A stretch of DNA of 52,687 nt, from IMG/VR virus record IMGVR_UViG_3300033067_001777, positions 1 to 52,687 of that record. One strand, written 5' to 3'. Under the pieces are notes generated by a model. That model made no database searches, was not told the origin of the DNA, and worked only from the letters and a program-made list of their open reading frames with translations. This document shows positions 1-52,378 of the stretch, piece after piece. The stretch is from a virus (taxonomy: Duplodnaviria > Caudoviricetes). Made by a program: the position numbers and the translations under genes. Every line of letters begins with the position of its first letter. Position 1 is the first letter of the stretch.

Positions 1-81
1 ATGACCATCACCAACGAGGCAGTCCTAGCGATTCAGTCGCTCCGCAGGCCGAGACGTAAACGCAAGTCAGAGAACGCATAG
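1..81 (+). CDS. 3' end of a cassette ORF (probably partial) terminating inside an attC site
   Basis: Frame MTITNEAVLAIQSLRRPRRKRKSENA* ends at TAG 79-81 within the attC arm, matching the pattern of the other cassette genes. Confidence 0.5.
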   Translation: MTITNEAVLAIQSLRRPRRKRKSENA

Positions 82-165
82 CTCTGCCATGACTGCCCGC
101 CCCATAGCTCCGCCCTCGCTACCGACTCCCGCCGGGCAGTCATTGGCAGCAGCGTCTTGTTCCCA
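69..165 (-). mobile_element. attC: attC recombination site (97 bp)
   Basis: AGAGAAC-GCATA-GCT-CTGCCA-TGACTGCCC ... GGGCAGTCA-T-TGGCAG-C-AGC-GTCTT-GTTCCCA: AAC/GTT boxes, unpaired 5-nt spacers, two extrahelical bases 6 nt apart. Confidence 0.88.
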
Positions 166-1003
166 CTCTTCGTGGCCTGTTGTGGTCTCATTTGGGGGCG
201 GGACGAATAGCGCCGCAATGCTGATCGAGATGGCGCGCCGTGGCGTGGTGCCTGACCTCATCACGTTCGCGGACACGGGCGGCGAACTGCCAGAAACGAT
301 TCAGTTCGTGGCGGACTTTTCGCAATGGTTGGTCGCTCATGGAATGCCGCCAGTCGTGACGGTAAGCGATGGCCGCAGGACACTGGAAAGCGAAGTGCGC
401 GAAGCGGGAACGCTGCCGTCTCTGGTCTTCGGCTTCCGGTCGTGCTCCGATAAATACAAAGTCCGCCCGCAGGAGCGATACCTGAAGCAATGGCAGCCTG
501 CACTGGACGCATGGGCAGCGGGTGGAAAGGTCGTGAAACTCATCGGCTACGACGCCGGAGAAAAGCACCGCGTGAAGGACTTCGATGATGCCCGCTTCAT
601 GGTCGCCTATCCGCTCGTCGAATGGAACTGGCGGCGGGCGCAATGCGTGGACGTGGTGGAAGCCGCAGGCTTCCGGCCTGCCAAGTCCGCCTGCTTCTTC
701 TGTCCGGCCTCCAAGCGCGGCGAAGTGCTCGCCCTCGCCAAGACTCACCCGGATCTGTTCGCTCGGGCCGTAGCGATGGAGCGCGGCGCGAGTGCGGCAA
801 CCACGGTCAAAGGTCTAGGTCGCAACTGGCGATGGGAAGACCTCGTGAAAGCTGACGATGCGCAAATGAAACTGTTCGATGAACTCCCCGACGCCGTTCC
901 GTGTGGCTGCTACGATGGCGGCTCCGGTGATTGGGGGAACGCTTTGCATGAGCTACCGCCGCCGTGTGGCTCCGAATGCAACCAAGACGCTACCGGCGGT
1001 TAG
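89..1003 (+). CDS. PAPS-reductase-like (PP-loop, Cys-rich) protein carried as an integron cassette
   Basis: VVSFGGGTNS PP-loop, FADTGGELPET, RSCSDKYK, KSACFFCP, PCGCYDG; both termini are encoded by attC arms. Confidence 0.8.
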   Translation: MTARPIAPPSLPTPAGQSLAAASCSHSSWPVVVSFGGGTNSAAMLIEMARRGVVPDLITFADTGGELPETIQFVADFSQWLVAHGMPPVVTVSDGRRTLESEVREAGTLPSLVFGFRSCSDKYKVRPQERYLKQWQPALDAWAAGGKVVKLIGYDAGEKHRVKDFDDARFMVAYPLVEWNWRRAQCVDVVEAAGFRPAKSACFFCPASKRGEVLALAKTHPDLFARAVAMERGASAATTVKGLGRNWRWEDLVKADDAQMKLFDELPDAVPCGCYDGGSGDWGNALHELPPPCGSECNQDATGG

Positions 1004-1022
1004 CTCCATGCAATTGTTCACC
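934..1022 (-). mobile_element. attC: attC recombination site (89 bp)
   Basis: GGGGAAC-GCTTTG-CAT-GAGCTA-CCGCCG ... CGGCGG-T-TAGCTC-C-ATG-CAATT-GTTCACC; same geometry as 69-165. Confidence 0.88.
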
Positions 1023-1036: not shown

Positions 1037-1351
1037 ATGAAAACAGAAGAAGCCCACCTCCAAGCAGCCCAAGTGCTGAAACAAGATAGCATTCTGCGCA
1101 CCCGTCTCGAACGAGTGAGATCGCGAATGCAAATACACATCGCAGACGTGAAGCGCGAGATCGACAGCCTCAGCGAAGCCCTGACCGTGGAATACACGGG
1201 TCACGTTGCGCTGCTCAAGCAGACTCACGAAGGCTGGACATGCCTCGCATGTGTGGACTCGTGCAACCTGCCGCCCGATGTGCCGGAAGACTTCGACCTC
1301 TGCCTACCAATCCCGAAACCGGAGACGATGCCCGAATGGGAAGGATGGTGA
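1037..1351 (+). CDS. hypothetical protein (first, attI-proximal cassette)
   Basis: 104-aa ORF bounded by GTTCACC (1016-1022) and its exact reverse complement GGTGAAC (1347-1353); coiled-coil-like N-terminus and CxxC. Confidence 0.7.
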   Translation: MKTEEAHLQAAQVLKQDSILRTRLERVRSRMQIHIADVKREIDSLSEALTVEYTGHVALLKQTHEGWTCLACVDSCNLPPDVPEDFDLCLPIPKPETMPEWEGW

Positions 1352-1373
1352 ACAGTTCTTCCACGAAATGAAC
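1347..1373 (-). mobile_element. attI: putative attI site (crossover G|TTCACC on minus strand)
   Basis: GGTGAAC closes the first cassette but has no attC hairpin behind it; it lies 14 bp before the intI ATG. Extent beyond the core box is a guess. Confidence 0.65.
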
Positions 1374-4149: not shown

Positions 4150-5640
4150 ATGGCTTTTGAAATTCTTTCCCCGAATACAGGGGCGACTCTGGCAGCACAA
4201 ATCGACCCGGCAGAACTGTGGGCACGCGCCGTTCTCGTGTCCGAGGGCGACGAAGATCCCTTCATGGATCTTGAAGGAGGGTCTGACAGTATCATCGAAA
4301 CGAAAACCGAGACTGCCGCCGGCGCTGGTAGCACGATCAATTTCCGCGTCTCCGCTGACTTCGGCGACGAAGGCATGATCGGCGACGAACTCCATGAGGA
4401 GTCCGACGATTACGAGGCCATGAAATTTGGCCAGTTTCAGCTCACTGTTGACTGGCTGCGCCACGCCACCCGCTGGACGAAGCGCGGTGTGGAGAGCATG
4501 GGCCTGCTCAATGAGATCGTCGATCAGGTGCCGCAGAAGCTCGGTCGCTGGCTCGGTGTGCAGAAAAGCCACCGTTTGCAGATGACCTATCTGCATAAAA
4601 CCACGGCGGACAACCAGTTCTACACGGCCGCCAATGAGGACGCGATCACGATGTCGAACTGCCTGACCTATGATGAGATCATCAAGGGTGGCGCGATTCT
4701 TCAGCCGCTCGGTGGCTCGCCTGCGCGTCTGGGCAAGGATACCGAAGGGAATTCCATCTGGGGTGCTTCGGTCATCGCCACGAACAATGCGACGTACGGG
4801 CTGAAGAAAGATTCCGTCTATCGGCAGAATCTCCAGAACGGAGCCGTGAAAGGCATGAGCAATCTGCTCTGGTCGGGTGGTCTCGCCAACATCGACGGCC
4901 ATTACATTCGTGAATACACGCCTAAACGTGGCGACATCGAGGGTGCCGTCGGCTCCCCGATGAATCCGCAGGCGTTGCTCGGTGTTGCGATCACGGCGGC
5001 GACAACGACGTTTGACATCAAGGGCGGGCGCAACCCCACGAGTGCGGCGAAGACGAAAAAGAAGTACTTCAAGTTTTTCCCCAAGAACGCCTATCGCTTC
5101 ATCACGAGCGATACGCTTTCCACCACCAGCAAGGTGTGCTGGAATCTGCGTCCTCTGGGCGCGGATGGCTCGACCGCGAACGTGTTTTACGTGCGCATCA
5201 CCAATCCGCCGAATGCGGCGACCGATCCCGGCAAGTGGGGCATGTATGAGATCAGCGCGAACGACGGCAACAAATTGACGGTCAGCGCGCGCCTCGGGCC
5301 GACGAGCAACAGCGGCATTCGCTACACCACGCTCGGCGCGGTGACGTATTCCGCCGGCACTCACACCACGGAGCACGCGGCGGGTTCGCTCATCACGCTG
5401 TGCAACAACCGTGGCGTGCCGCTTGGCGCGACTCTCTTCCTCTACCGCCAGTCGGCGTATCGTGGCTACGGCTCGGTGCGCAACGAGCGCACACAGGATC
5501 AGAATGACGGTGGGTTCGTTCAGAACCGCTACATCGCCAGCGTCTTCGGGCAGTGCGTGCGCAAGGATGCGGATGGAAACATGCCGGCGGTGGCGGTCAT
5601 CAAGCACGCCATTCACTACCCAGGTATCATTGATGCGTAA
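4150..5640 (+). CDS. major capsid protein (N4-gp56/DUF4043-like)
   Basis: AGSTINF...GDELHEESDDYEAMKFGQFQLTVDWLRHA resembles the N4-like MCP N-terminus; strong codon bias; followed by hairpins. Confidence 0.75.
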   Translation: MAFEILSPNTGATLAAQIDPAELWARAVLVSEGDEDPFMDLEGGSDSIIETKTETAAGAGSTINFRVSADFGDEGMIGDELHEESDDYEAMKFGQFQLTVDWLRHATRWTKRGVESMGLLNEIVDQVPQKLGRWLGVQKSHRLQMTYLHKTTADNQFYTAANEDAITMSNCLTYDEIIKGGAILQPLGGSPARLGKDTEGNSIWGASVIATNNATYGLKKDSVYRQNLQNGAVKGMSNLLWSGGLANIDGHYIREYTPKRGDIEGAVGSPMNPQALLGVAITAATTTFDIKGGRNPTSAAKTKKKYFKFFPKNAYRFITSDTLSTTSKVCWNLRPLGADGSTANVFYVRITNPPNAATDPGKWGMYEISANDGNKLTVSARLGPTSNSGIRYTTLGAVTYSAGTHTTEHAAGSLITLCNNRGVPLGATLFLYRQSAYRGYGSVRNERTQDQNDGGFVQNRYIASVFGQCVRKDADGNMPAVAVIKHAIHYPGIIDA

Positions 5641-23134: not shown

Positions 23135-23574
23135 GCTGGAACTTCTGGAAGCCCAAACCGGCGCGTGTGGTGGTGAGTGCCAATGAGATCGGCACGGCCA
23201 TCACCGGTGCGCTGCATGGTATGCTGACCTGCACGCCACGGCTGGCGGATGATTTCTACACGCTCACCACGCAGGATGAGGTGAAGCGCATCGCGTGCAA
23301 GGCATGGGAGCCGTGGGTGGCACAGACAGATGATTGCGACGATCAAGCCTTTGCCGTGAAGCATTACGCAAATCGCGAGGCATACGATCTCGGGCTCAAG
23401 CATCCGCTGGCGCTCGGCTTCATGTGGAGCGCGGGCGACAAGGCACACGCCTACACCCTGGCCGTCTGCACCGATGCCCATGCGCTGCTGGCGGTGCATG
23501 TCTATAACCAGACCAGCGGCTTCTGGGAGGCGGTGAGCACGCTCGACAAACCCATCACGCTCATTGTTGTATGA
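23131..23574 (+). CDS. papain-like/MOA-C-terminal-like cysteine peptidase candidate
   Basis: DDCDDQA...HAY motif pair. Confidence 0.45.
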   Translation: MSWNFWKPKPARVVVSANEIGTAITGALHGMLTCTPRLADDFYTLTTQDEVKRIACKAWEPWVAQTDDCDDQAFAVKHYANREAYDLGLKHPLALGFMWSAGDKAHAYTLAVCTDAHALLAVHVYNQTSGFWEAVSTLDKPITLIVV

Positions 23575-24455
23575 TCCACGTCCTCTATCACAATCACTGC
23601 GCCGATGGTTTCCTCTCGCGCGTCATCGCCCAACGGAAGCTGGGTTTTGCGGTGAAGTTTCACGCCGTCAATTACAAGGAGCCGGTGCCGGCGGCGGTGC
23701 TCAATGATTTGAATGCGGAGGTGTTCATTCTGGATTTCAGCTATCCGCGCCATGATATGGAGAACATCCAGCGGAAGGCGTTGAGCGTCGTGTGCCTCGA
23801 TCATCACAAAACGGCGCAGGCTGATCTTGAGGGGCTGGACTTCTGCACCTTCGACATGACGAAGAGCGGGGCGATGCTGGCATGGGAGCATTTCAATCCG
23901 GGCGTGCCAGCGCCAGAGATCGTGAAGTATGTGCAGAATCGTGACCTGGGATTTCCGTGGAGCGATCCCGAGAAGGCGCTGCCTGATTGTCTTGAAATTC
24001 ACGCGGGGCTGTTTCGCGCGATGCCACGCACCTATGATGCCTGGAGTGAGCTTCTGGATCAGAAGGATTTGACCGATCTTGCTTTGAATGGTGAAAAAAT
24101 GATGAATCTGGACCGGCGCATCTTTTCGACAGTGGCGCAGACTCCGATTTGGATTGAAATAGGCGGTCACAAGGTGCCAGCCGCGCAGTTGAGCCACGAG
24201 TATATCTCCGATGCGTGCAATGCGATGCTGAACGTCTGGCAGGATGCGCCGTTTGCGGCAGCGTGGTTTGTGTCGTCCACGAGCGGACAGGTCACTTACA
24301 GCCTGCGTTCCCGCAAAGGCGGCTTTGATGTGAGTGCGCTCGCCAAGTCATTCGGCGGTGGCGGACATGCTCAAGCTGCTGGCTTTTCAAGCAATGAACC
24401 ACCGCAGTTTGTTGAATCCAAATGGCTGAATGACACTAACGGCTGCTCCGAATGA
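23571..24455 (+). CDS. DHH/DHHA1-family phosphoesterase
   Basis: YHNHCADG, ILDFSY, LDHHKTA, SLRSR, DVSALAKSFGGGGHAQAAGF. Confidence 0.92.
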   Translation: MIHVLYHNHCADGFLSRVIAQRKLGFAVKFHAVNYKEPVPAAVLNDLNAEVFILDFSYPRHDMENIQRKALSVVCLDHHKTAQADLEGLDFCTFDMTKSGAMLAWEHFNPGVPAPEIVKYVQNRDLGFPWSDPEKALPDCLEIHAGLFRAMPRTYDAWSELLDQKDLTDLALNGEKMMNLDRRIFSTVAQTPIWIEIGGHKVPAAQLSHEYISDACNAMLNVWQDAPFAAAWFVSSTSGQVTYSLRSRKGGFDVSALAKSFGGGGHAQAAGFSSNEPPQFVESKWLNDTNGCSE

Positions 24456-24461: not shown

Positions 24462-27400
24462 ATGCTTCCACCACCCCCACCTTCCCGCCGTCCACCTGGA
24501 ACACCGGTTCAGCCGCCGACACTGAGAGCGCCGAGGATGGGGGCGGAGCCGGCGCAGCCGATGGCTGACCTCGATCCGCGCAAGTTCACGACACCGGCTT
24601 TTCGGCAGGCGTTTGCCGGTCAAATCCGGGACATGGACGCGGCGGACAATGGCGCGCAGAGAGATCAGGCGCGCGCCGAGAAAGCGGCCGAGGCTGAGAA
24701 GGTGCGGCAGCACAATCTGATGGTGAAACCGCAGTACGCGGCGGAGAATCGACCGACGTTCATCGATGCCGATCACTACATCCGCCCGAAGCACGATGAT
24801 GCGACGTGGCAGCAGATGCAGGCCGCGAAGCAAGCGAAGGATGCGCTCGGAGCTTCGAACAAGCAGGTGATGTCTGAACTGTCGGTCCAAGGTCGGAAGC
24901 ATTTTGTCAATCCGGCCACCGGTGCCGTGGAGCCGACGGAGAGCGAGGATGCGTTTCAGGCACGGCAGGCTGCCGAGACGGCGGCGGCCGCTGAGAAAGC
25001 CCGTGTAACAGGCTTGTCCCATCAAATCCAGTCGCTTGGTGCCGAGGCGGAGCTGAACCGGCCCGGCATGACGGACAAGCAGCGCGAGAAGGCCGGCGAG
25101 GCGCTGGCACGCGCTCATCGTGATGCTGTGGCGACAAAGGCGATCCCGGCGCTTTCCGCGAAGGTTCAAGAGTTGGACAAAGGTTCAAAAGGTTCCACAT
25201 GGAACCCTTTCGACAACGATCCGGCAAAAGCTCAGGAGGCGGAGACGGCGCGCGCGCATCTGAACGATCTCAACGACCGGCTCATGAAGGCCGGAGATAA
25301 AGGCACGGTCGATCTCACGTCCGAAGACGAGAGTCTGCTGGATGCACCGACACTCACGGCACTGAAGACGGCGCGCGAGAATCTGGCAAAGCATGACGAG
25401 GTGTCGCAGGCACACACGGCGCTGGTCGATCAACAGCGCGATTTGAAGCTCCGTCTGGCTGATCCGCAGAAATGGGAGGCTCTGCAAATGCAGAAGCTCG
25501 GCACGCTGCCGCCCGATCAACTGGACGCGGAGATTGAGCGCCGGAAGTCGTTGCTCGAAGAACGCGGGGTCGCCATTCACGAGAAAGCCGCCGGGCATGA
25601 GGCTCTGGTTGCGCAACACGAAAAGCAGCTCGCCGATATTGAGCAGGAGAACAAGGACATCCTCAATAAAGGGGTCACGGCTGGCGATCTGATGACGGTT
25701 GCGAAGCCGGACGGCACTACGGAAGACTGGCATCGTGGCGTGGCCGCGAAGTATTTCCGCACTCTCCAGGATGCCGGCGAGATCGACAAACAGGCGAAGG
25801 AACTCCGGCCCGTGCTTCAGTCCGATGCGGGCGATTACGAGCAGGAGCGGCGCATTCTGAATGCGGCCATCGAACGCAAGAACGGTGTAGCGGAGCAGCA
25901 AAAGCAGGATTTTCTCGGCACCCTGCGCGCCGATCCATCCACGGCACCACACGCCGATGCGCTGGAGGCACTGGATGCGGATGCGAAGATCCGCGCGGGC
26001 GATCTCGATACGATGTACACGCCCGGCAGTCCTGAGCACACGGCGGCGATGCAGGCGCTTCAGGAGGACGTGCAAAAGAATCGCGAGGGCATCCTTCAAT
26101 CCGCCGGTGCCACCAAGCAGGCCAAACACGAAGCCGGTGCGCAGCTCTATCAGCAACTCAAGGATTTCAATCCTGAAATCGACTGGACCAAGCCCGAGGG
26201 CGGTCAGAACGACATCCCGCAACAGATGATTCAGCGCAAGGCTCAGGAACTCGGTCTCAGCCCCGAGGAAGCCACGCGGTCACTCCAACTGCAAAAGGCC
26301 GCTGACTGGACCGTGCCGCATGAGCAGGGTATTCTCGAAAAGGTGGGCATCGGCGTGCCGAATCCCTTTGCCGTGCTGCCGTGGATTCGCGGTGACAAGG
26401 CCACCGCTGAGAGAACGATGGTGGCGACCCCGACCCTCGACGATCTCACGCTGCATTTTTTCCGCAAGGAAGACGTGGCACCGGAGCAGTATCGTGTGCT
26501 GCCAAATGGTGTGCTGTCGGTGAATCCGGCGCTCACGTTCACGCCCGATGCCTTCAAGAAGGCGGTCGATGCGAGTCCGGCGACACCGGAGGCCAAGGCG
26601 CAAGCGCTCGCTCAACGCGAGCAGATGGCACTGGAAGGCGGCAAGAATGCGCTGCCGATTCTCGAAACCACCAGCGAATATCCCGCGTGGATCGCCGCGC
26701 AGACGAAGAAAGACGCCTCGCTCGCCACCCTGCCACCCGAAGCACAGGCCGCGAAGTTTCTGGAACAACGCGATCAACGCGCATGGGCGGGCAAGCTGGG
26801 TGATCAGCTCCGCGTCGGCGTGGGCAATGCGATCCTTGGCCTGGCTCAAACGGTCACAGGCACCGCTTTGCTCGCCACCGGCTCCGACACCGCGCGCGAT
26901 CTCACGCTGGCGCTGGATGCCAAGCGGCAAAAGAATGCGCAGCAGCTTGATGTGATCGGCAGTTCCTCCGACCGTGTGCTGCGCACCATCGGCAGTCTGA
27001 CTGACAACGCTCTGCAAATGGTGGGCACGCTCGGCGCGGGTGCCTTTGCGGGCAAGATGGCGCGGTTCGGATCGAAGCTGGCGACGGCCGCCAAGGCTGC
27101 GGGCACGATGGAAGAATTCAGTCACGGCATGGCCGCGCTCGGCAAACTCGAAGCGCAGGGATTCACCACCGCGAGTGCGAAGCTGGTGGAACGCGCGCAG
27201 ATGGCCGGCAGCGGCATCGGCGAGGGATTGCAGGCGGCGAGTCAGATGTACCCGGAGGCGTTCACGGCCTACAAGAAGCAATACGTCGAGCAGGGCATGA
27301 GCGACAAAGACGCCACGGCAGCCGCTCACAAAAGCGCGCTGCTGCCGGTGCTGACGAGTGCCTTCACCACGAGCGTCATCGGCTACCTGGGCGGTGCCAG

Positions 27401-30400
27401 TGGTGCGGAGGTGCTGCTCAAGAAGGGCGGCATCGAGGGCGCGAAGAAAGGCTTTCTCAACATCGTCAAAGGTCTGGGCAAAGAGTCGCTGTCGGAAGGT
27501 GCTGAAGAACTGTGGCAGACGTTGGCCGATGAATTCAACGCGCAGGCGAACTATGATCCGAACCGCACCGTCGGCGCAATGGCCGGGAGCGTGGTGGAGT
27601 CTGCGTTCCTCGGTGCTCTGATGGGTGGCGGCTTCGCCGGCGTGCATGAGGCGCTGAATCACATGGCCGCGCAAAAGACGGACGATCAGGCGCGGGTGAA
27701 TGCGACGGATGTGCATCGTCGGCACGAGATCGTGGCGGCTGCGAAGGCTGGGATTGAGTCTTTGGTCGAGACTCCTGACTCACCGGTGACCAAGGCCAAT
27801 GCGGCGTCGGTGCTGCGCATAGCGCAGGGCGAGGACATCAACAAGTTTGCGAGTGGCGATCTCGCTGCGCTCGGGCTGGATCGTGTGGACGGGAAGATCG
27901 TGCCGCTCAAGGGCTACGAGGGGCCGCAGATCGTGGAGTTTGCCGACAAGGAACACACGCAGCCAATCATCCGGCAGGTATACATCGATGCGCTCGATGA
28001 GCACGCTCCGGCGGTGCATACGGCCATCGGCTTGGATGAGGTGGATGCGCGGGAGATGTGGGCCGAGAAAGCGGCGGCAAGCAAAGACGGCGGGCTTACG
28101 CCAGCCGCTACAACAATTCCGGCAGGGGTGGCCGGGGCGACCGTTGCTGGCGCTGAAACATCCCCGCCTCATGTGACCGGCACGTCTGCGCCGGACCTGT
28201 CCGGGGTGAAAGTTGCGGGGGTGTCTTCATCCGTCGCGCCCGGCGGCGGCCCTGCGTCGGAAGGCGCGGCGGGGCAGATGACCGGGCAACAATCCAGTAA
28301 GTCAGTGGTCAGTGGGTCAGTGAATCAGTCAGAGCCACCAAAGGGGAATTCTCCGGCGCGGCGTGCTTGGGAGGTGGCGAACCATCTCGAAGATCGCGGG
28401 TTGCCTCGTGAGGTGGCGCAAAAGGCGGCTGGTCAGCTCGTGAGCAAGGCCGGCGTCGTGGGGAACACGGTCAACGATCAAATCGCCGATGCTTCGTTTG
28501 TTTCGACGCTGAAGGGTCTCGGTCTGAAATCATTTTCCAAGGGGCGCTGGCAGGCACCCGACAATTTCACCGGCACCACAACGGCGTCCGGTGCAAAACC
28601 AAACCAAACCGGGAGTAATACCACCGATGAAAACACAGTACGAAGCCAAAAATGGCAGCAAGGGCAAGGGCAAGGGCGGCAAGTGCTAAGCCAGTCCGTG
28701 GCGACGGACGTTTCACCGTCCGCCGCCATTGCTGACATCAAGCAGGCGGTGGCCGATAAGAAGATGTCTTTCATTGATGCCGCTCGTGCGGTGCTGAAGG
28801 ATTACACCGGTCCCGATGAAGTGGGGCATCTCGTCGCCACGCTGGGCATGAAGACGCAGGCCGCGACGGATGTCGTGGAGGCGATGGGCGGTGGTTTGCC
28901 AGCCTGGAAAGGTGTGGCGCGGCAGACGCAGGGCAAGAGTCCGACACCAAGCAAGGCGGAACTGGATGCGGGTTGGGAGTCGGTGAAGAAAGAGCACGTC
29001 GGCAAGGCAAAAGGCACCAACGCCGTGGTGGGCGATCTCGCGCGCTGGATCAAAGAAGAGTACGGTTTGCCGGCCTCGGAAGCGGCGCGGATCGCGAAAG
29101 AGCATCTATCGGCACCGTTGGGGCGGGCAGCGGGGACAGAACCCTCACCCCAGCCCTCTCCCGTTGGAGAGGGGGCAGTTTCGGCGGATACACTGCCGGA
29201 AGCGAAGAGCGCCGCCGTCGCGGCTCTACCTCGGGGCGAGCGGAAGCGGGCGCGGACGACGTTGAAGGCGCTCGACAAGGCGCTGGCGAAGCAGGGTAAG
29301 GCATTCGAGCAGATCATCGTCGGCGAGGAAGCAACGGCGCGGCTCAAAGGTATGGCGGTGGCGGTGGCGATGAAGGGTGGCAAGGTGACGTTGCTGCTCG
29401 ATGTGCCGGCGTTCATTCAGCAGCACTCCTGGCTGGCGCGGTCGGTCGATGAAGTGACCGACACGATGACGGAGGAGTTTATTCACGCGATTGCGAAACA
29501 TCTGCTCAAGACAGACGCCACCTTCAGTGATGCGAATCTGGCGAAGCTGTGGGAGCGGCTGCCGCAGGATTTGCGCAATGCGGTTTATCAAGCCTACCAC
29601 GCGCGCACCGTCGGCAAGAAGCTGCGTACCTCGGCTCCCGATCTAGACGAAGCCAATGCCGCCGGCATGACGCATGAGTTTTTGCGGATGCTGGTGCAGA
29701 ACAAGGCTTTCCGTGGCCGGGTCACGGAACACAAGGGAATCAATCAAACAGGACTGCTGCCGTGGATCAAGACGCTGCTCTCGAAGCTGGGCGATGCGCT
29801 GGAACACTTCCTCGGCACCGCGCCGAAGTCGGTGCAGTCCGAGGTGGAGCAGTATCGCGCGAAGATTATCGGGGCGATGGCGGACTTTGAAGGCGCTTTT
29901 CAAGCGTCCAAAGAAGAGGAGACGGGGAGATTGGGAGATGGGGAGATTCTGAATAACATCCTTGCCCATCAAAAGCGCGGGCTGCTCACCGCTGAGGAAG
30001 CCGAGGCGGCGAAGATCGCGGCGGAGAAAGAACTCGCTGAAAATGCCAAAGCCAACGCCAGCGATGAGGCACGCGAAACCATCGCCCGGCGGCTCATTGC
30101 GCAGTCCATCGCGGCGCGCATCCTGGATGGTGAATCGAAGGCGGAGATCGCCAAGAAACTCAAGGCCGGCGAGATCACGGCAGACGAGGCTCGTCGGGCA
30201 GAGGTGATGGTGAAGGTGGCGCGCGGTGGTTATCTCTACCAGGAAGACAACTTTGGGAACTGGGGCCTGCGCACGAACTGGCAGGCACCGGGAGAGACGC
30301 AAATCATTGAGATGGGCCTGCTCGGTCTGGAGATTGATCCGAAGGCGCGCACGATCGCGCTCAAAAAGGACGAGGCCGGCGAGTTCATCACCGACGGGGC

Positions 30401-33400
30401 CGGCGTGCCGTTCAAGGGCCAGGTCGTGCTCCGCCAGTCCGCGCTCGACGAACTCCAGCGCAGGCTGCCCATCACGCGCCAGTTGATCGGCATGAGCGAG
30501 GCGGAGGCGCGCGCGGCGATTGCGCGGATGGTTGGATTGCCGGAAGACGTTCCTAGTTCTTCGTCCGTGGTTCTTGGTTCAGAGAACGGCGATTCCACAG
30601 CGCAACCAAGCACAAAAAACAACGAACAAAGAACCGCCGAAGGCGATGACGAGATCGATCTGTCTCCCGGTCCCGTGGTGGATCCGGCCCAGGTGGCGGT
30701 GGACGATTCCGTGGAAACTCCGCCGGAAACGGAGCGGAAACCCGGAGAGGCGGATGAAAACGAGACGGAAACCGAAGCGAAACCACCGCCATCGCAGTCG
30801 ATCGAGATCGGCAAGCGGGAGTATCGGATGGCGACGTTCGCCACGGCGGAGGATGCGGAGGCGTTCAACCTGGTCACTCAGCTCCGCCAGGCGCACAATC
30901 CGGCGAGCAAGCTCACGGAAGCGGAGCGCACGGACATCATCGAACGCGGGCGGGCCCTGCGGAACCGGCTCGTGGTCGAGGCCGGGCACAGCAAGGCGGA
31001 GGCCAATAAGATCGTCGAAGGCTACCATCAGGCGGTGATCGACGAGGCGAAGAAAGCGGATCCCTTCGACGGGTTCACGCCTCAGAGTTTCCAGCGGTTC
31101 GCTCGTTTCCCCGAGAAGCAACAAGCAGAGTCGAAACTCAAGCGCATCGCGAAGGACAAGCTCAAGGATCCCGAAGGCACGGACATCATCAGCATCCTCA
31201 AGGGTGAATTTGGACGGCTTGCCTACACGCCAGAAGTGGCGGACTCCGCCGAATGGGAATGGTATCGCGATCTCGAAAAGGCGGCGCGAAGCAGCGGGCT
31301 CCATCTCGATGCAGCAAAGCGCGCGGCAGCGCTCGGCGAGGTGGATGACGCCCGGGCACTTTTTGAATGGGTGAACCTGAACATCGTGAATCGAGACGGC
31401 GGCGGCATCAAGATCGACGAAGCGGCGGAAATTCTGAGCAGCGGGGAAACAGGGCAGACCTTCCGAGTGTCTGCCACGGAACTGGGGCCCGCTATTCTCG
31501 ACGCCGTGGCCACGCGCCAGAAGGCGCTGGAGCGTCCCGAGACGATGGACGACTACCTCGAAGCCGAGGGCGAGGCAATGCTCGCGGCGGAGAGGGAAGC
31601 CGAGGAAACGGAAGCCATCCGTGGCGGCGTGCTGGGCGCGGCGGTGAAGACCGACCCGGCATCCGTAGCGGCGAGGAAACAGCAGCTCACGGGCGCGGAA
31701 ACGACGGTGCAGGAGCAGAAGGTCAAGACGGGCGTGCCGGTCACGTTTGATTTCGTCCACAACACGGAATCTTCGACGGCGATCTGGGGGAAGCCGAAGG
31801 CGGGCGATCCGTTTGACCGGCATCTGGAGCCGTCCGGGCGCTACGTCACGGAGACGAAGGATCGCTATCTGGTGGAGAATTTCCCGGAGAGATACATCGC
31901 GGGCACGTTGTCGTTCAAGAACCCCATCGTCATCGACGGCGGTTATTACGAGACGCCATCCTCGTGGAAGCGTCGGCTCTCGGAGGTGTTTGGCGGCCTG
32001 CGCGGGAAGCGGCTGAGCCAGGCGATCATCGCCGACGGCTACGACGGCGTGATCACACACGGCAGCCACGGGCCCAGCGAGATACTGGACCTGACGACCT
32101 TCGACGAATCGAAGGCGCTGTATGCCGCGGACAAGACCGGGCCGACGCGGGCCTATGAGTCGATGACCTTCGATCCGCCGTTTGAGGCTCCGTTTGGGAA
32201 GATCGTGAGCTACAACTGGGTCAGCCGCGCCGTGGGCCAGATGTCGAGCGAGCGGGTGAGCGACTGGAACAACTCGCGCACCAACCCAGTCACCGGACGA
32301 CAGATTGTGCATCATTTCAAAGTGCTCGGTCCCGACGGCCTGAGCACGGTGTCCCTGGAGACGGCCATGGGCCAGCTCTCCGACAAGCAGCGCACCGATC
32401 TGAACCGGATCATCAAAAGCGAGCAACAGCGGCGCGTGGATGCCGCGAACGGGCAGATGGCGCTCTTTAGCGCGGTGAAGACCGAAGGATCACAGCCAAA
32501 GAAAAGCCCCGCCTTGGTTGCCCAAGGCGGGGAGGTGTCGCAGGTCGGAAGTCCTATCCAGACATCGAATCAGCTTCAACGGGGCCGCTCCCAGAACCCG
32601 ATTGAGGGAGCGGAGAAATCACCCCTGGCAGGTGATGTTGTCGCTGCGACTCAGAAGGATGGACGGGTCATCGCGAATTGGCAAGGACAAATTCAGAAAC
32701 TTTACCGCAAAATCAGAAACCACTTTCCGCCGCTGCCGGTAGCCGGGTACTGGACGCTTGATCATCCAGACTGGACATTCAAACGACTGGATTCCCCGGC
32801 CGCTGCTGAATATTCGTGGAGAGCCAATGGCAAATCCGGACCAGCACCCACAGTCATCCCGGCAACGAAAACGCTGAGTCGGGAGGAAATCTTTGGGCTT
32901 GCCAAACCACCTGTCGTACTGCCGCTCGACAACCCTCAGTACATCGAGGTTGAGGCTCCGATCCGGCCCATGAACCGGATCAGTGCGTTCAAGAGCGTGG
33001 TGTCGAACAGACCTGATGCGGAATGGACCGTGATCGGTTATCGGGACGAGGGGCCGCATTGGTCGGAGAAGAAGGAGGAACTGTATCAGGTAGGCAAGGA
33101 GGGGCAGCAACGCCGTATCTGGGGCGACGAGACATGGAAACAAATTACCGGGGCGTGGGAGCAGAATCAGGGCGAGAGAAAACCCGCAGAGATCACGGGC
33201 GATTTCAGTCTGGCTCTGCCAGATGCGAAGCATGACATCCGCCTAGATCAACGGGCGTTGGATGTGTTTGCCGGGAGGCCGCCGGTGAACCGGCCGCTTG
33301 AGTTTGCTGAATCGGAGGAAGTCACGCGAGCACTGAATGGCAAGGCCATGGTCTATGTGGGCGGATTCGGCGCAGGGCAGCGCGTGCAGCTGAACGGCAG

Positions 33401-36400
33401 GCCGGGGCAGTATTACAATCAGGTCGTGTTTGCTTCCGACCAGTGGAAGCATGCCAACGAGGCTAAGGAGTCATATGAAGCGGTAGATGAGCTTGAGGAA
33501 CAGAAAAAAAAGCTCACCGAGAAGAGGAAGTTCCTGACCGACTTCATCGAGCAAGTGATGGCAAATCCATCAAGCAGCTATGCCACCGCCAACCAACTGC
33601 ATTCGATCTGGAACAACTATAGGCTCGCCGGTGGGACTCACGATTTCGCGGCTTCTCTTGCTGCCTACGCTGCGAAAGTAGAGCGTGATGAAGCGGTGAA
33701 GGCCGAACAAGCCGCGCTGACCGAGGCAGCGAACTACCTGCGCGGTGAAGCCGCGCTCCCAGAAAACCAGCGCCGTGACCGCCTGACGGCGAAACAGAAC
33801 GTCATGCAACGCGAGGCGCGGACGCGGCAGGCGGATTACTCGGCGCTGTGGGAGAAACTGCTCGATGAGCGGTATCCATCGCCATTACGGCAACTGGCAG
33901 ACCTCTGGAGGCGCATCGCGGCGGATGAGGACAGTTTTCAATATCCGAAGTCATCAGCAAAGAACATTGAGAGGCTGGCCCGCGAGATGTCTGGCGGAAC
34001 CGTGACTGGCGTCGTGCAGTCAGACGGGGATCTAAAACTATCGTCGCCAGGTGGGCAGATTGAAATCACAGATCCCGATTCAGATTCGCCGAAGATCCAC
34101 GCGCCAAGTGCGGGATCGAAGGGCAAGAAGGCAGGAGGGGGGGCGCTGATGTATCAGATTGCTCTGGCATGGGCGGCGAACAATGGCAAGACGATCAATC
34201 CAAGTAACCAACTGAGCAGCATCAACGCTTTTGTGCGGCGGACGAGCAACATGCTCTCTAGTGCCCTGCGTTTTGGCAGCACGGATCACATGATTCCCGA
34301 CAAGGACCAAGGTGTGAAAGGCTGGGTGAAGGGACGGCACTGGAATAACATCGCTAGGCTAGCGCAGAGAGAGGAACATCAGGTCTTTGCCACGTTTCCG
34401 AAGCTGGACACCTTGCGCTGGGACTTTGTGAGTGGTAGCTTTGTTGAGCATGTCGCAGGTAGTGAACAGCCCCTTTCCATTGACGAAGGGCGAATCGAGG
34501 AGATTGTCCGAGCAGCCGACCCAAAGGGCTACGGTAATGATGCGGGCATCGGCGCGACAACAGTTCAAAGAGCGATTCTCACACGATCCGCACTGGAAGA
34601 ACTGGGACGAGGACAGTTGGGAGAAGATGTTCGCGGACTCGGAGACGGGGAAGTAAAGGCACCTGGCCGCCTGCTGTATGCCGCCATCAAGACCGAAGTC
34701 GATGCCGGGGCGCATGAGGCGGCGACTTCGCCGCTCAATCCGCTGGCGGAGCCGTCGGTGGCACAAAAGGAGGCGGGCAATTACAAGGTCGGGCGTGTGC
34801 GCGTGGGGCCGCTGGACATCAGCGTGGAGAATCCGGCGGGCAGCGTGCGCCGTGGCACTTCGAAGTCTGGCAAGACCTGGGAGGTGACGATGGCGGACCA
34901 CTATGGCTATGTGCGCGACTCGGAGGGCAAGGACGGCGATCATGTGGACATCTTCCTCGAGCCTGGCACGCCGGCGGATTTCGCGGGGCCGGTGTTCGTG
35001 ATCAACCAGATGAACGCGGACGGAAAATTCGACGAGCACAAGGCCATCCTCGGCCCATCGCTGCGCACGATCGACGACGCGCGGGCGGAGTATCTCAAGA
35101 ACTACTCTCCCGGCTGGAAGGGCGCGGGCAGTGTGGTGCAGTTCCGGGATCCGGCGCATTTCCATCAGTGGGTCACGGCGCGGCGCAGGCTAGCGCCTGC
35201 GTCCAAAGACTTGGAGAAGAGGAGTGGAGGAGTGGAGGAGACGGAACCTCTCGGAGCGGCAAGGAAGATCGGTGATGGCATCACGGTATTCAGCAAGACG
35301 ATCAAGACGCCGTACGGCAGCCGGTATTATCACGCGACGTTCGAGGGCGACTGGTATCACATCCGTCTCGCTGACCACGCCAACAAATCAGCCACGGGCG
35401 GCGAAACGGATAGACTGTTCAAGGATTTGCACGCAAACGAGGCAGGGGTGGGTATGACCCATCCGCATGAATTGAACGTGCTCTTGACCGACCCTGTGAA
35501 AACCGAAAACGAGGCGAACGAAGTGATCCGCCGCGTGCTCCTTGGATTGCCTGATGCCGCGAAATACCGCACGCCGATTGAAAGGCTGGCGTGGGAGAAG
35601 GATCAGACTCCACAAATCTATGGCAACTCGGTCGATGTGGATGCTCAGTACAATCGGCTTGAATACAGTTTTGAGGACGCGGCTGGCGAGAGATTCGACG
35701 AGGTGCCGGCACAACAAAAAAACCAGTCAAGGGCGGAAAGCGGATCGGACATGCCAGGCAGAGGACCGACCAACTTGGCGACATCCAAGACTGGCGAAAC
35801 GATTCCACCACAACCCCAGCCATCCGTCAACCTTGATTTGAACGAATCCGGGCCGTTGGGGGCGGCTCCGAAGGTGGGGGATGCGATTGCGAATCTCGCG
35901 GTCGGGGCGCTCGATCTCGGCTCTCGTGTGGTCCATGCGACGGGTCTTGAATCGCCGCTGCAACGGCTCGGCTGGAACCATCTGGACAAGGCGGTGTCGG
36001 CCAAGATCGCGGCGCATACGCGGTGGGCGCGCGATGGCGTGGCGGAGACGGTGGCGGGGTGGGCGCGGCATGAGAACGTCGCGCCGTTTGCCCGGGCGGC
36101 CAAAACGATCAAAGGCGAACTGATTCCGAACTCCAAACTGCCGGCGGAAGTGATGGCGGCCAAGCGTGAGATGGACATCAAAATCGCCATGCAGCAGCAG
36201 CGCGCCCTCGATCTGGTGCGCGCCCTGTCGGGCAAGGCGAAGTTCTCCGACATGGCCTATCCCAAGGCGTTCGTGGAGAATCCGAAACATCGGGAGGCGC
36301 TCTTTGATGCCATGGAGGGCCGCGTGCCGATGTCGAGTCTGCCGCCGGAGATGCAGGCGCTCGGGGCCCGGCTGCGCGGCAAGCTGGTCGAGATCGGCCA

Positions 36401-45486: not shown

Positions 45487-45791
45487 AGACAAGGAGAAAG
45501 GGAGTGGTGGAAAAAAGGAGTGGTGGAAAGCCAAAGGCGCGCAAGCGCTACACGCGCACGGTGGCGATGACAGCGCGGCAGTGCGGCTGGGATGGTGTGC
45601 GGAATGTGACGCTGCGGGAACTCTGCCTGCTGGCCGGTGTGGGGTATGACCAGCTCCGGCTCGACCGTGTGGAGCACGGGCTGCTGGGCGAGCCGCTGCC
45701 AAAGAAATCCGGCGTCCGCACGCCGATCTGGGGAGCCACCGCCGCCAAGCGCTACCTGAGAAACAAGAACCCGGAGGCTTTGGATTTTTGA
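45483..45791 (+). CDS. basic HTH protein (excisionase-like candidate)
   Basis: VTLRELCLLAGVGYDQLR...W pattern; GGAGG RBS. Confidence 0.5.
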   Translation: MKTRRKGVVEKRSGGKPKARKRYTRTVAMTARQCGWDGVRNVTLRELCLLAGVGYDQLRLDRVEHGLLGEPLPKKSGVRTPIWGATAAKRYLRNKNPEALDF

Positions 45792-45904
45792 TTTATTCCA
45801 TTTTCACCGGCTGCCGCATGACGCGGCGGTCGGGAAACGACAACGAACCCGGAGGCAGGCCCACACCTGCCTCTACAAACACAAAAGCACAAAGCATCAA
45901 GATC

Positions 45905-46225
45905 ATGTCCTATCAGAAACTCATCGCCCTCATCAGCAATGCCATCGCCACCCTGAAAACGGATGCCTCCGACAAGCAGGAAATCCGCCGTCTCAAGCTG
46001 GAAAACGAAACCCTGCACGCGGAACTGGCGGAAGCCAAGGCCGAATGCCCCACCGCCGATGAGCAGGCGCAGCTCGCCGGTATGCTTGCCGACTTTGCCG
46101 CCGCTACGAGCCTCAATGTGAGCGGCGCGGATGCGGAGTCGGAGAAAGAAGAGGCTGCGCAGCCTCCGACCACGGAACCTCCGACCACGGAGGAGGAAAC
46201 CGGCGCGCCCACGCCTGCGGCATAA
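45905..46225 (+). CDS. coiled-coil hypothetical protein
   Basis: MSYQKL start, acidic PPTTE repeats. Confidence 0.55.
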   Translation: MSYQKLIALISNAIATLKTDASDKQEIRRLKLENETLHAELAEAKAECPTADEQAQLAGMLADFAAATSLNVSGADAESEKEEAAQPPTTEPPTTEEETGAPTPAA

Positions 46226-46373
46226 ACCCCTTGCCACGCCTCGGTTCCGGTTGGCCGAACTGGCTGGAGGGCGCGGGAGACATGGCAGGCGGCGATCCGC
46301 AAAACGGAAGCCGCCTGCCTGCTTCAAAACTGAATCTCAAATCTCAATCTGAATCCGAAACTATCCGAATCCC

Positions 46374-46793
46374 ATGAAATCAACATCGAACTCCAACGCT
46401 AAAAAGACAGACCTCGACATTCAGCAGAACACGAACGGTGAGGTGCCGGTGCCGGAAAGCCTGAGCGCAAAGATCCAGGTCTATGACGGCGGGCCGTTGG
46501 TCATGCTGACCTTCATCCCGCGCTACAAGGTGCCCGGTTGGAAGCTGAGTTTCATGCTGAGCATCCCGGACCTGCCAGACCTGCTGCTGCGGGAGTTTGA
46601 CACACTGGTCGGCCAGATCGGCGAGGACATCCACGAGTTTGAAGGCGCGGGCTGGGACAAGGTGCTCGTCATCAGCGGAGAGGCAAGCTGGTCACAGACT
46701 GAGAAGATCGAAGCCGCCGAGCACAAGGGCCTGCCCCTGCCTCCTCCGGTGATGGCCGCCGGGATGCCGGCGGATTCCGCGAAGCGCTACTAA
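46374..46793 (+). CDS. hypothetical protein
   Basis: 139-aa ORF. Confidence 0.6.
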   Translation: MKSTSNSNAKKTDLDIQQNTNGEVPVPESLSAKIQVYDGGPLVMLTFIPRYKVPGWKLSFMLSIPDLPDLLLREFDTLVGQIGEDIHEFEGAGWDKVLVISGEASWSQTEKIEAAEHKGLPLPPPVMAAGMPADSAKRY

Positions 46794-46928
46794 GCGCGCC
46801 TAATTTCCGCCGGTTGCATTTGGGAGATGCTGCCGGCGGGGAGCAAACCTCCCGTCCGCATGGGGTGTAGCGCATAGCTCATCCCGGCGGGCGGGGGACT
46901 TCTTCCAAAACTGACAAACCCAAAAGGA

Positions 46929-47345
46929 ATGAGTGCGATTTTATCGAGTGACGCGAGTACAGCGACCAAGGGCGGCAGCGTTGAAACGGTTCCCAGTTTG
47001 CCGGCGGCCGAGATCCGCAACGGGCTGGAACTGCGCTGTGCCGTGGGCAGGGCGCTGCTGCTGTGCGCAGATGATGACAAGGTGCAGAAGGTCTGGTATG
47101 AACTGCGCCCGGAAGACCGTGACGATCTGATGGAGGAAGCGGCGGCGGCGTGCATGGTCATCGCCCAACGGGTGGTGCTGCCGCGCATCGAGCGTTGCCT
47201 GAAAAATGCCAACACCGGCAATGAATCCGCGATGGTGCTGGCGATCTGCCACGAGAGCGTGCTGCAAACCCTGACCGGCATGAACGCCGCCGAGGCACAT
47301 GACTGGGTGCTAAAGCATGGAACGCTGAACCGGACTGAAGCATGA
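46929..47345 (+). CDS. hypothetical protein
   Basis: 138-aa ORF. Confidence 0.55.
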   Translation: MSAILSSDASTATKGGSVETVPSLPAAEIRNGLELRCAVGRALLLCADDDKVQKVWYELRPEDRDDLMEEAAAACMVIAQRVVLPRIERCLKNANTGNESAMVLAICHESVLQTLTGMNAAEAHDWVLKHGTLNRTEA

Positions 47346-47866
47346 AAACGACCCTCAATCCCACGCTGGTGCGCCGATTCGGCAAGACGGCGGCAAAAAA
47401 GACCGGAACGCGGGCCCGCTGTCGCGCGAGTCTGCCAAGCTGCCCATCGGAGCACGAGGAGCAGAAGGCGCTCATCATCTGGGTCACGGCGCAAATAGGC
47501 CGTGGTAGATCAGAGTTGGCGCTGCTCTATGCCATCCCGAACGGGGCGTTTTTTGGCGATGACAGCAAGACGCTGAAAAATGGAAAGAAGCTGCCGATGG
47601 GAGTGATTCGGGGCCGGCGCATGGCAGCGGAGGGGCTGAAGGAAGGTGTGCCTGATCTTTGTCTGCCCGTTCCCCGAGGCGGACATCTGAGCCTCTACAT
47701 CGAAATGAAGCGCCGCAAGGGCGGCGTGGTGAGCGCGAAACAAAAATGGTGGCATGATCAGCTCCGCGGCCAAGGTCACGCCGTGATCGTGCCAGAAGGC
47801 TGTGAGCAGGCCATCGTACTGATTCAAGCCTACCTCAACGGCAGGGAGAAGGAGGATGGGTTGTGA
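47342..47866 (+). CDS. VRR-NUC family nuclease (resolvase-like)
   Basis: EHEEQ, YAIPNG, GVPDL, YIEMKRRKGG..S.KQ. Confidence 0.88.
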   Translation: MKTTLNPTLVRRFGKTAAKKTGTRARCRASLPSCPSEHEEQKALIIWVTAQIGRGRSELALLYAIPNGAFFGDDSKTLKNGKKLPMGVIRGRRMAAEGLKEGVPDLCLPVPRGGHLSLYIEMKRRKGGVVSAKQKWWHDQLRGQGHAVIVPEGCEQAIVLIQAYLNGREKEDGL

Positions 47867-48282
47867 TAGGCACCTTCACCACCGCCGGCGAAATGGTCAT
47901 GGAATCTTGCTGCAAATGCGGTGTTCCCTTTGCCATGACACGGGACTTTTACGAGGCGCGCAGACGTGATGGAGGCTCGTTTCACTGTCCGGTCGGGCAC
48001 GCCCAGCATTACACAGAGACGACCGAGAGCCGGCTGCGCAAGCAACTGGATGCAGCCGAGCGGTCGGCCAAATGGAAGCAGGAGGATCTGGAGCACACTC
48101 GCACCCAGCTCAAACACGAGCAATGGAAGACGCGCGCCGAGCGGGCCGCCAAGACCAAACTCAAGCGCCGCGTGATTGCAGGTGCTTGCCCCTGCTGCCA
48201 GCGCACGTTTGCCAATGTAGCCGAGCACATGAGGACGATGCACCCCGAGGCTGTGGAGGCGGCATTACTCAAAACCGAATGA
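47863..48282 (+). CDS. zinc-binding coiled-coil protein
   Basis: CCKCG, CPVGH, CPCC...HMRTMH. Confidence 0.7.
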   Translation: MIGTFTTAGEMVMESCCKCGVPFAMTRDFYEARRRDGGSFHCPVGHAQHYTETTESRLRKQLDAAERSAKWKQEDLEHTRTQLKHEQWKTRAERAAKTKLKRRVIAGACPCCQRTFANVAEHMRTMHPEAVEAALLKTE

Positions 48283-48605
48283 GTGCCGTGCTCGACATGC
48301 CCGAACTGCCGTTTGCGGCCACGCTGGAGGATGCGTTCATGCGTTTCCATGCGCAGAATCCGCAGGTGTATGACTTCCTCACAGCCAGGGTGCGTGAGTG
48401 GAAGGAGGGCGGGCACGATCACGGCAGCATCCGCATGTTCTGGGAGCTGGCACGCTACGAGTTTTGCAAAACGGTGAAACGGGACTCGAAATTCAAGCTG
48501 AACAACAACCACCACGCCTTTTACTCGCGTCTCATCATGCAGCGCGAGGCGGATCTGGCGGGGTTCTTTGAAACACGCGACCACGCGGAAACCTCATGCG
48601 AGTGA
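48279..48605 (+). CDS. conserved phage hypothetical protein
   Basis: FHAQNPQVY...FKLNNNHHAFYSR...FFETR. Confidence 0.65.
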   Translation: MSAVLDMPELPFAATLEDAFMRFHAQNPQVYDFLTARVREWKEGGHDHGSIRMFWELARYEFCKTVKRDSKFKLNNNHHAFYSRLIMQREADLAGFFETRDHAETSCE

Positions 48606-49021
48606 ACAAACCGAGAAACGAACCCGTGGCCAGGGTGAGCATGGCCGTCACCAAGCTGGACCGGCTGTTGTTTCGTCGGCTGGGCTGGAGTTTGACGCCT
48701 CTGCACGCCAAGTTGCTTCGGGTGGTGGCGCGCACGCTGAGTGATGAGCTGAAGCAGGATGTGACGATGGCTGATATTCTGCACCACGGGGAAAGGGGCG
48801 CGACTTACACGGCCACCTACCACCGCATCCGCCAGCTTGCAGCCGCCGGCGTGTTGGAGATACGGCGCATCGCTGGAGCAGCGCAGACCAAGGGCCAGCC
48901 GTCGCGGGCCATCCGGCTGTCTGAGATTGGGATCGATCTCCTGAATCAGAGCCGGCTGGAGGCGGTGAAGGATTCAAAAGTCAGGAGACAGGATTCAAGC
49001 AAGCAGGATACACAAGCATGA
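48596..49021 (+). CDS. winged-helix DNA-binding protein
   Basis: TMADI...YHRIRQLAAAGVL...IRLSEIG. Confidence 0.55.
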   Translation: MRVNKPRNEPVARVSMAVTKLDRLLFRRLGWSLTPLHAKLLRVVARTLSDELKQDVTMADILHHGERGATYTATYHRIRQLAAAGVLEIRRIAGAAQTKGQPSRAIRLSEIGIDLLNQSRLEAVKDSKVRRQDSSKQDTQA

Positions 49022-49440: not shown

Positions 49441-49455
49441 TGGAGGAACTGAAGC

Positions 49456-50196: not shown

Positions 50197-50199
50197 AGC

Positions 50200-52331: not shown

Positions 52332-52375
52332 ACCAACAGGCAGCGCCCGCCGTTGCCAGCACCAAATTGTTAGCC
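52286..52375 (-). mobile_element. attC: distal attC site with a non-canonical (GAT) crossover box
   Basis: GCAGATC-GACAAT-GGT-CTGGCA-CGGCGGGTGC ... GCGCCCGCCG-T-TGCCAG-C-ACC-AAATT-GTTAGCC. Confidence 0.85.
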
Positions 52376-52378
52376 CTT

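Follow-up and report, generated by a model that had tools for sequence, protein, structure and literature searches.

An integron in a phage-like genome with cassette genes reversed relative to the usual direction and with gene starts and stops inside its attC sites

The stretch of DNA analysed here (the window) is a 52,687-bp viral sequence assigned to the Caudoviricetes. It makes up the whole of IMG/VR record IMGVR_UViG_3300033067_001777, which is classed as linear with a CheckV completeness estimate of 66%, and it encodes head proteins (phrog_334, 1.6e-8, and phrog_240, 4.7e-24). Near the left end, the + strand carries the 3' end of an open reading frame (ORF) that belongs to a distal cassette and is truncated by the contig start (1-81, stop TAG 79-81), a gene for a 304-aa PAPS-reductase-like PP-loop protein (89-1003), a 104-aa ORF (1037-1351) and the recombinase gene intI (1368-2360); all four lie on this strand. 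At the right end, also on the + strand, are a replication-initiator-like ORF (51174-52331; phrog_2509, 1.2e-10) and a 77-aa ORF (52379-52612). Family searches gave no match for either the 104-aa or the 77-aa ORF. Several of these genes begin or end within hairpins of the attC type, the recombination sites of integron cassettes. Judged from its sequence, the locus is very probably a complete integron in a phage-like genome, with intI, an attI junction and at least three to four attC-bounded cassettes between the replication gene and intI, in which the attC site precedes the gene.

The product of intI (330 aa) is an integron integrase that scores 319.4 bits against TIGR02249 (cut-off 265) and also matches PF00589 and PF13495. 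It is 40% identical to the annotated IntI1, with 7 gap positions in 334 alignment columns. No gap follows a 3-residue gap near query position 204, and the ungapped part includes residues 205-270 before the HxxR box, which we take to be the additional domain specific to IntI. The protein is identical to IntI1 in the LRVKDLD, EGKG, HT.RHSFAT, LLGH and TTMIY blocks (R, K, HxxR, H and Y), within which the catalytic residues are presumed to lie. The gene is intact, and its conserved residues align with those of IntI1. IntI gives the sole PF00589 match of the record, and a search of the record with PF00239 (serine recombinase) gave no match. Related IntI proteins occur in five viral contigs, among which identity is 47-87%, and the best bacterial IntI is 47% identical. 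Since the bacterial relatives do not exceed this value and are scattered over many phyla, no host is inferred.

The attC sites were identified with a covariance model (R1) built from 14 attC sites in four viral contigs (L002, L003, L004 and L006), which encode IntI relatives and carry arrays of like hairpins upstream of intI; no site of the window was included. The training consensus consists of paired AAC and GTT boxes, an unpaired spacer, a stem with two one-sided bulges and a variable loop, and compensatory changes are found in 12 of its 18 pairs. Over the 52.7-kb window R1 gave exactly three matches, every one on the + strand. The first, attC A (69-165; 31.4 bits, approximate E 3.2e-7), is composed of an AAC box (AGAGAAC, 69-75), a 5-nt spacer, arms at 81-99 and 133-153, a 33-nt loop and a GTT box (GTTCCCA, 159-165); the arms are 19 and 21 nt long, the 3' arm having two extra bases. 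This site also reached 15 in a hairpin census and gave a DNA fold with z -3.32 and an RNA fold of -38.9 kcal/mol with z -3.40. The second, attC B (934-1022; 38.8 bits, approximate E 1.7e-9), which was likewise recovered by the census, the DNA fold and the RNA fold, has an AAC box (GGGGAAC, 934-940), arms at 944-961 and 994-1013 (18 and 20 nt, again with two extra bases in the 3' arm), a 32-nt loop and a GTT box (GTTCACC, 1016-1022). The third, attC C (52286-52375; 38.6 bits, approximate E 1.9e-9; RNA fold z -2.63), had been missed by the initial annotation. It has GAC in place of AAC in its 5' box and ends in the GTT box GTTAGCC (52369-52375), and the stop of the replication-initiator-like ORF (TAA 52329-52331) lies inside its loop.

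Chance is excluded for attC A and attC B. In the census of the whole window, in which bulges were allowed, a score of at least 14 was found at these two sites only, and five shuffled sequences gave 1, 0, 0, 1 and 0 such hairpins. The single-stranded DNA folds of 60-170 and 940-1045 each had z -3.3, with none of 200 shuffles as stable. A sliding-window scan of minimum free energy over the whole window did not make the attC sites stand out. Two further intervals considered as folded sites, 1320-1400 and 52590-52687, were rejected, being no better than shuffles (z -0.94 and -1.09). R1 also matches the attC sites of a class 1 integron, of the Shewanella phage M16-3 integron and of plasmid and bacterial integrons. 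As a separate observation, the box and outer-stem sequence of the L002 attC at 4809-4899 recurs in a clinical class 1 integron, in the attC behind blaGES-5 (L029, 3839-3948).

The boxes of successive sites are matched to each other. When the GTT box of one site was compared with the AAC box of the next, all four variable positions were complementary in 22 of 37 pairs and three of the four in 9 more; complementarity at all four was found in 4.2% of random pairs and in 2 of 46 pairs of boxes from the same site. Within the window the step from attC A to attC B is complementary at three of the four positions, and that from attC B to the attI junction at all four. The hallmark of a cassette, a start complementary to the distal box of its own attC, is present in these arrays.

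By its sequence, the interval 1347-1367 (+) is the attI junction. It opens with an AAC box, GGTGAAC (1347-1353), which is followed by a conserved attI-like motif, AGTT(C/A)TT, 14 nt ahead of the intI start, and it ends at that start. No hairpin or full attC follows the box; the sequence reads AGTTCTTCCACGAA and then enters intI. For this reason 1347-1353 was rejected as an attC: it is a bare box at attI. The combination of AAC and AGTT(C/A)TT directly 5' of intI is common to the window, L002, L004 and L006, and L003 has AGTGATT at this place. The 7-mer ahead of the motif is the exact reverse complement of the GTT box of the proximal attC in the window, L002, L003 and L004; in the window this is the GTT box of attC B (1016-1022). 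The initial annotation had placed the stop of the 104-aa ORF in a recombination box, and the TGA at 1349-1351 indeed lies inside GGTGAAC.

Two cassettes can be delimited at this end of the window. The PAPS cassette (75-939, +; 865 bp) consists of attC A and then the gene core, with a predicted cut at AA|C at both ends, and the intI-proximal cassette (940-1352, +; 413 bp) consists of attC B and the 104-aa ORF. Contigs from public metagenome runs (Logan contigs; runs X1, X18, X19 and X20) carry the same units. One X19 contig equals window positions 72-941 with 0 differences and has different flanks, and X1 contigs (938-1019 and 990-1354) and an X20 contig (951-1354) show 0-1 differences and diverge at 937 and 1354. 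DNA identity to the viral loci L008, L009 and L010 collapses just after the AAC at 938-940 and to the left of the AAC at 73-75; the 3' arm of attC A is common to the window and the alignment of these loci, and L009 and L010 share attC A, not attC B. The PAPS cassette is present in five non-syntenic viral loci. The window cassettes thus appear to be mobile units, the same cassettes being found in other contexts, cut at AAC boxes. In tblastx synteny comparisons, PAPS relatives at 80-88% share essentially that gene alone with the window. None of five PAPS-relative records contained an IntI, and L008, L009 and L010 are therefore attC clusters without an integrase. Two further loci, L007 and L011, have the PAPS-like gene without any attC. 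These are phage records (G001 and G005) with an estimated completeness of 96-100%, in which the gene is 82-88% identical, and this attC-free form bears on the origin of the cassette form.

The right end of the contig carries a further AAC box, GGATAAC (52607-52613), with the probable 5' part of a fourth attC (52607-52687, +). The box is complementary to the GTT box of attC C (52369-52375) at six of seven positions, the contig ends 74 nt beyond it, and ATG 52653 opens an ORF that runs off the contig end. The initial annotation had set this ATG in an attC loop, a placement that R1 did not confirm. The source-sample run X18, in which every sampled word of the query is present, includes a contig that ends at position 77 and reaches 589 nt upstream of position 1. 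After the shared stretch 48-77, X18 has two continuations, one into attC A (depth 19.9) and one into the window from 52616 onward (depth 25). This supports 52607-52613 as a real crossover box, and with it the earlier claim that the stop of the 77-aa ORF (TAA 52610-52612) lies in such a box. From the contig graphs, both contig ends seem to lie within one cassette, either tandem-duplicated or circular, which would explain why the assembly breaks there. The label of a linear genome that is 66% complete may thus stem from a broken assembly at a cassette that is duplicated or excised.

It is improbable that the array is a fossil, in which the sites and intI are real but inactive and the gene overlaps are tolerated relics with no role in expression. 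The departure of attC A and attC B from the usual box consensus, the GAC of attC C and the failure of scans of 1-2900 and 45500-52687 to identify a promoter or LexA site would suit such a state. Yet intI is intact, with its conserved residues aligned to IntI1, X18 holds both continuations after position 77, identical cassettes occur in other contexts in X1, X19 and X20, and, as described below, near-identical proteins (88-98%) carry five different tails.

The direction of the cassette genes was assessed relative to the sites. R1 is strand-specific because the bulges lie on the 3' arm, and box complementarity, being symmetric, gives no polarity. All R1 matches were on the intI-sense strand: 52 of 52 from the viral and control loci, 3 of 3 from plasmid integrons and 28 of 28 from bacterial loci. 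In four annotated references (plasmid pJF-789, Shewanella phage M16-3 and plasmids of Kovacikia and Diaphorobacter) the cassette genes lie opposite to the R1 strand, and in the window, L008, L009, L010 and L012 the PAPS-like gene lies on the same strand as the R1 match. Cassette genes on the + strand have Pfam support: the PAPS domain in the window, DUF3850 in L002 (9e-23) and an N6_N4 methylase in L004 (1.3e-41), the start of which lies in an attC loop. In the loci with IntI and the window, with segments below 250 bp or above 3500 bp skipped, 28 of 33 viral cassettes had their longest ORF on the + strand, whereas 26 of 30 bacterial or reference cassettes had it on the - strand. The attC sites are therefore oriented to intI in the ordinary way, and it is the cassette genes that occupy the unusual strand. 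The ordinary layout, in which top-strand genes precede their attC sites and a platform promoter directs transcription away from intI, is not found here. Because the genes share the strand of the recombining bottom strand and read toward intI, each cassette would have its attC first and its gene second.

One alternative is that the polarity is ordinary after all, in which case the + strand would be the attC top strand, every gene would have its own attC behind it, and the starts in the preceding attC would be coincidental or derived from fused cassettes. The + strand order of gene, RYYYAAC-type box with a TAA or TGA stop, hairpin and GTT box looks textbook, and the symmetric complementarity of the boxes fits either direction. 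On the other hand, R1 takes the same strand with respect to intI as it does in the four annotated references, whose genes are on the other strand. Furthermore, the array terminates at intI in a bare AAC box and the attI motif with no full attC, an ending that would be foreseen only with the + strand as bottom strand. Each stretch of identity in X19, X1 and X20 is bounded by AAC boxes, and the one in X19 (72-941) comprises attC A and the gene, not the gene and attC B; the sharing of attC A but not attC B by L009 and L010 agrees with this. We consider ordinary polarity quite improbable.

With the sites and their direction in place, the coding role of the attC sites could be examined in 47 of them, 44 from viral loci and the three in the window. 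Five matches in L013 were left out because they resemble those of L012 in size and score (L012 and L013 encode the same PAPS-like protein), as were three in the control loci L029 and L030. A + strand ORF of at least 50 aa starts inside 32 of the 47 sites and one stops inside 38, as against a mean of 16.7 starts (maximum 25) and 16.5 stops (maximum 27) in 200 sets of random placements. The counts for the - strand of the same sites were 23 starts and 30 stops; when starts were restricted to ATG, there were 28 on the + strand and 11 on the - strand, and ATGA occurred in 31 and 8, respectively. Most of the sites (39 of 47) sit between the end of one ORF and the start of another. The gap from stop to start at these junctions has a median of 33 nt, and it is 10 nt or less in only 12 of the 39, of which 5 are ATGA overlaps. 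At attC A the gap is 7 nt (stop 79-81, ATG 89), which would fit translational coupling. Many attC loops in L002, L003, L004 and L006 contain the motif AAC(C/T)(A/G)TGAA, the ATG or GTG of which starts the downstream ORF.

The PAPS-like gene (89-1003, +) shows this arrangement at both ends, since it starts inside attC A and ends inside attC B. Its product belongs to the PAPS reductase family by its match to PF01507 (31.8 bits, gathering cut-off 22.5) and matches phrog_424 (9.5e-39); its catalysis is predicted. The best Foldseek matches were PAPS reductases and other PP-loop enzymes, but these were weak (E about 1e-4, with template modelling scores of only 0.32-0.37). AlphaFold predicts a confident core, and residues 1-7, 16-24, 269-294 and 296-304 have a predicted local distance difference test score below 50 and no secondary structure. 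The conserved core extends from about W29 to W282. Residues 1-25 come from the gene's own attC, as expected from the approximately 25 codons between ATG 89 and the end of the GTT box, and residues 283-304, together with the stop (1001-1003), come from the neighbour's attC. The claims of the initial annotation on this gene have therefore held: the upstream stop, 4 nt beyond the AAC box and within the attC of the next cassette, shares one attC (69-165) with the start at 89, as found by a model free of window sites; this attC encodes the N-terminal residues; and the following attC encodes the tail.

The initial annotation had suggested aligning homologues to see whether conservation ends at the boxes. 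An alignment of 35 PAPS-like homologues has a conserved core that reaches from the WP motif to CGCYDGG, and similarity stops at the Asn encoded by the AAC box. This Asn (N284) is present in 17 of the 35; 16 of them have a tail of at least three residues, and all 16 tails are different. Four proteins that are 88-98% identical to the window protein (P0002-P0005) have four further tails, so that the five proteins including that of the window end in five different tails. The N-terminal leaders, which derive from the upper stem and loop of each gene's own attC, are variable as well, and where the attC is common the leader is too (L009, P0013). The attC-free homologues of L007 and L011 have short, unrelated ends. 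The earlier proposal that attC sites supply start and stop signals and that shuffling exchanges protein tails is consequently upheld for the signals and the variable tails and has to be amended in one respect, in that the start would travel with the gene and the neighbour would give only the stop and the tail.

It is very unlikely that this picture is an annotation artefact, with the true start of the PAPS-like gene downstream of attC A and the attC serving as a 5' untranslated hairpin. The gene call stored with the record (P0001) is 261 aa long, which with the same stop implies, by arithmetic, a start at Met44; in addition, ATG 89 is buried in the -38.9 kcal/mol stem and no Shine-Dalgarno sequence is visible ahead of it. 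A start at Met44 would, however, delete the PP-loop block SFGGGTNS and the WP motif, which are invariant or nearly so in the 35 homologues. No in-frame ATG, GTG or TTG lies between the GTT box and W29, and in all five cassette-type loci an in-frame ATG is found inside the attC. Gene callers seem to avoid a start that is buried in a hairpin.

A different frame was noted in attC B. A 30-codon frame (948-1040) runs from an ATGA in the 5' arm, where its position in the structure roughly corresponds to that of ATG 89 in attC A, and its closing TGA overlaps the start of the 104-aa ORF (ATG 1037). The frame may represent a leader ORF or what is left, after a frameshift, of a start embedded in an attC.

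That the hairpins are phage transcription terminators or RNA-stability elements unrelated to integron recombination, as their position at gene junctions and their strong RNA folds might suggest, is extremely unlikely, since they lack T runs, have loops of 30-odd nt and one-sided bulges, match a model that also finds class 1 and bacterial integron attC sites, adjoin a bona fide IntI and have sequence variants that break exactly at AAC boxes.

Several points weigh against the interpretation of the locus as an array of reversed cassettes. The E-values of R1 are rough because its calibration was shortened, and its training sites were picked by our own hairpin census, which required AAC and GTT flanks. 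The usual consensus of attC boxes is RYYYAAC ... GTTRRRY, and the boxes of attC A and attC B fit it only at GTT and AAC, the other four positions being off; in attC C, GAC replaces AAC. The same consensus is also quoted by Qi et al. 2023 (PMC9892861), and the boxes of the relatives in L002 fit it well. For the fourth attC, R1 with filters off gave a best score of 1.1 bits over 52380-52687. The longer ORF lies on the - strand in 5 of the 33 viral cassettes, and a strand test by GC content at codon positions, which favoured the + strand in 20 of 33 viral and also in 18 of 30 bacterial cassettes, did not separate the groups. No sigma-70-like promoter was found in 1-2900 or 45500-52687, so that the direction of transcription is inferred solely from gene order. 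Finally, the Logan contigs prove that other arrangements exist, and not that these belong to the same phage or are of recent origin.

On the interpretation of reversed cassettes, the following mechanism may be proposed. The + strand would be the recombining bottom strand, as its extra-helical bases on the 3' arm suggest, with crossover at AA|C of the 5' box. The start codon would lie in the gene's own attC, in the 5' stem arm for the PAPS-like gene and in the loop, within the ATGA motif, in many relatives. The first 25 or so residues would then be a translated hairpin and are predicted to be disordered. A gene without a stop before its cassette boundary would read into the next AAC box or attC and take its stop and tail there, and shuffling by IntI would retain the N-terminus and swap the C-terminal tail. 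Transcription of the array would begin at phage promoters farther upstream and continue as far as intI. Gene order and a terminator-like hairpin on the + strand (2768-2791; 10 pairs and a T run by consensus scan only), which lies 3' of intI and a 101-aa ORF and possibly marks the end of the transcription unit, suggest one + unit from the replication gene through the array and intI. In the RNA, ATG 89 is within the stem of the predicted -38.9 kcal/mol fold of attC A, and a ribosome terminating at 79-81 would open this stem and reinitiate at ATG 89.

We advance only tentatively the broader proposal that these elements form a phage-adapted integron lineage, in which the attC serves as 5' leader and start, the array is expressed within the phage's early operon, which continues into intI, each start buried in a hairpin opens only when a ribosome finishes the preceding gene, each shuffle gives a new tail, and IntI may insert the whole phage into host attC or attI sites. 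The last of these suggestions arises from IntI being the sole recombinase found in the record; should the phage be temperate, the integrase it uses may be IntI. Elsewhere in the window, the gene products include a DUF5131 protein, a DHH phosphoesterase is encoded at 23571-24455 (phrog_4771, 5.9e-66) amid genes of unknown function, and one very long ORF of 4767 aa occupies 24462-38765 (+).

Parts of this arrangement have precedents. In 10,705 phage genomes, 3 complete integrons, 1 In0 and 17 clusters of attC sites lacking an integron integrase (CALINs) were found (Qi et al. 2023, PMC9892861), and the authors describe several of these integrons as class 1 mosaics or as parts captured from integrons of the host (PMC9892861). 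The present locus resembles those integrons in having intI, attI and attC arrays in a phage genome and DNA-modification cargo that includes methyltransferases. It differs from them, as described there, in that five viral contigs share a related IntI, a conserved attI and reversed cassette genes. In class 1 integrons, ORF-11 in attI1 and short ORFs in attC sites couple translation (Fonseca and Vicente 2022, PMC8876359), and the stop of ORF-11 lies in the 7-bp core site (PMC8876359). Here, too, starts and stops lie inside a recombination site; in the ORF-11 type this enables a ribosome to get beyond the hairpin and begin again on the following cassette. In that type, genes occupy the attC top strand and short ORFs encode leader peptides of their own, whereas here an attC appears to encode the actual N-terminal end of a 304-aa enzyme, the tail of which comes from the neighbour's attC. 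In the inverted integron-integrase arrangement of the Treponema type, intI is transcribed toward attI and is co-oriented with attC (PMC3607928; Cury et al. 2016, 10.1101/030866). As in that type, transcription of intI runs the same way as that of the cassette genes; unlike it, intI points away from attI, its 5' end abuts attI, and the attC orientation is the usual one, the genes being reversed.

Chromosomal integrons are known to contain reverse-oriented cassettes with their own promoter, such as toxin-antitoxin cassettes. Toxin-antitoxin cassettes with their own promoters are noted in PMC9892861 and 10.1101/030866. In these cassettes, as here, the gene runs opposite to the usual cassette direction. 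Reversed toxin-antitoxin cassettes are, however, exceptions within arrays, whereas reversal is the rule here (28 of 33 cassettes, judged by longest ORF), and no promoter-like site was found near the cassettes of the window. Phage integrons, coupling linked to att sites and intI co-directed with cassettes have already been published. Our literature searches, which had paper supplements outside their scope, found no description of arrays with reversed cassette genes.

In the usual model of the integron, promoterless genes with the attC behind them are read outward from a promoter beside intI. Here the geometry of the recombination sites is kept and the genes are reversed. Expression would consequently have to come from the phage operon, new cassettes would be farthest from the promoter, and intI would stand at the operon end. 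Gating of translation by the attC hairpin can be tested with one defined start, ATG 89. Judged only by family names, the cargo (a PP-loop enzyme, a DNA methylase and DUF3850) suggests that the platform may shuffle phage genes for DNA modification or counter-defence. The layout would provide a concrete route from site-specific recombination to protein change, in which one enzyme core is found with 16 different C-terminal tails.

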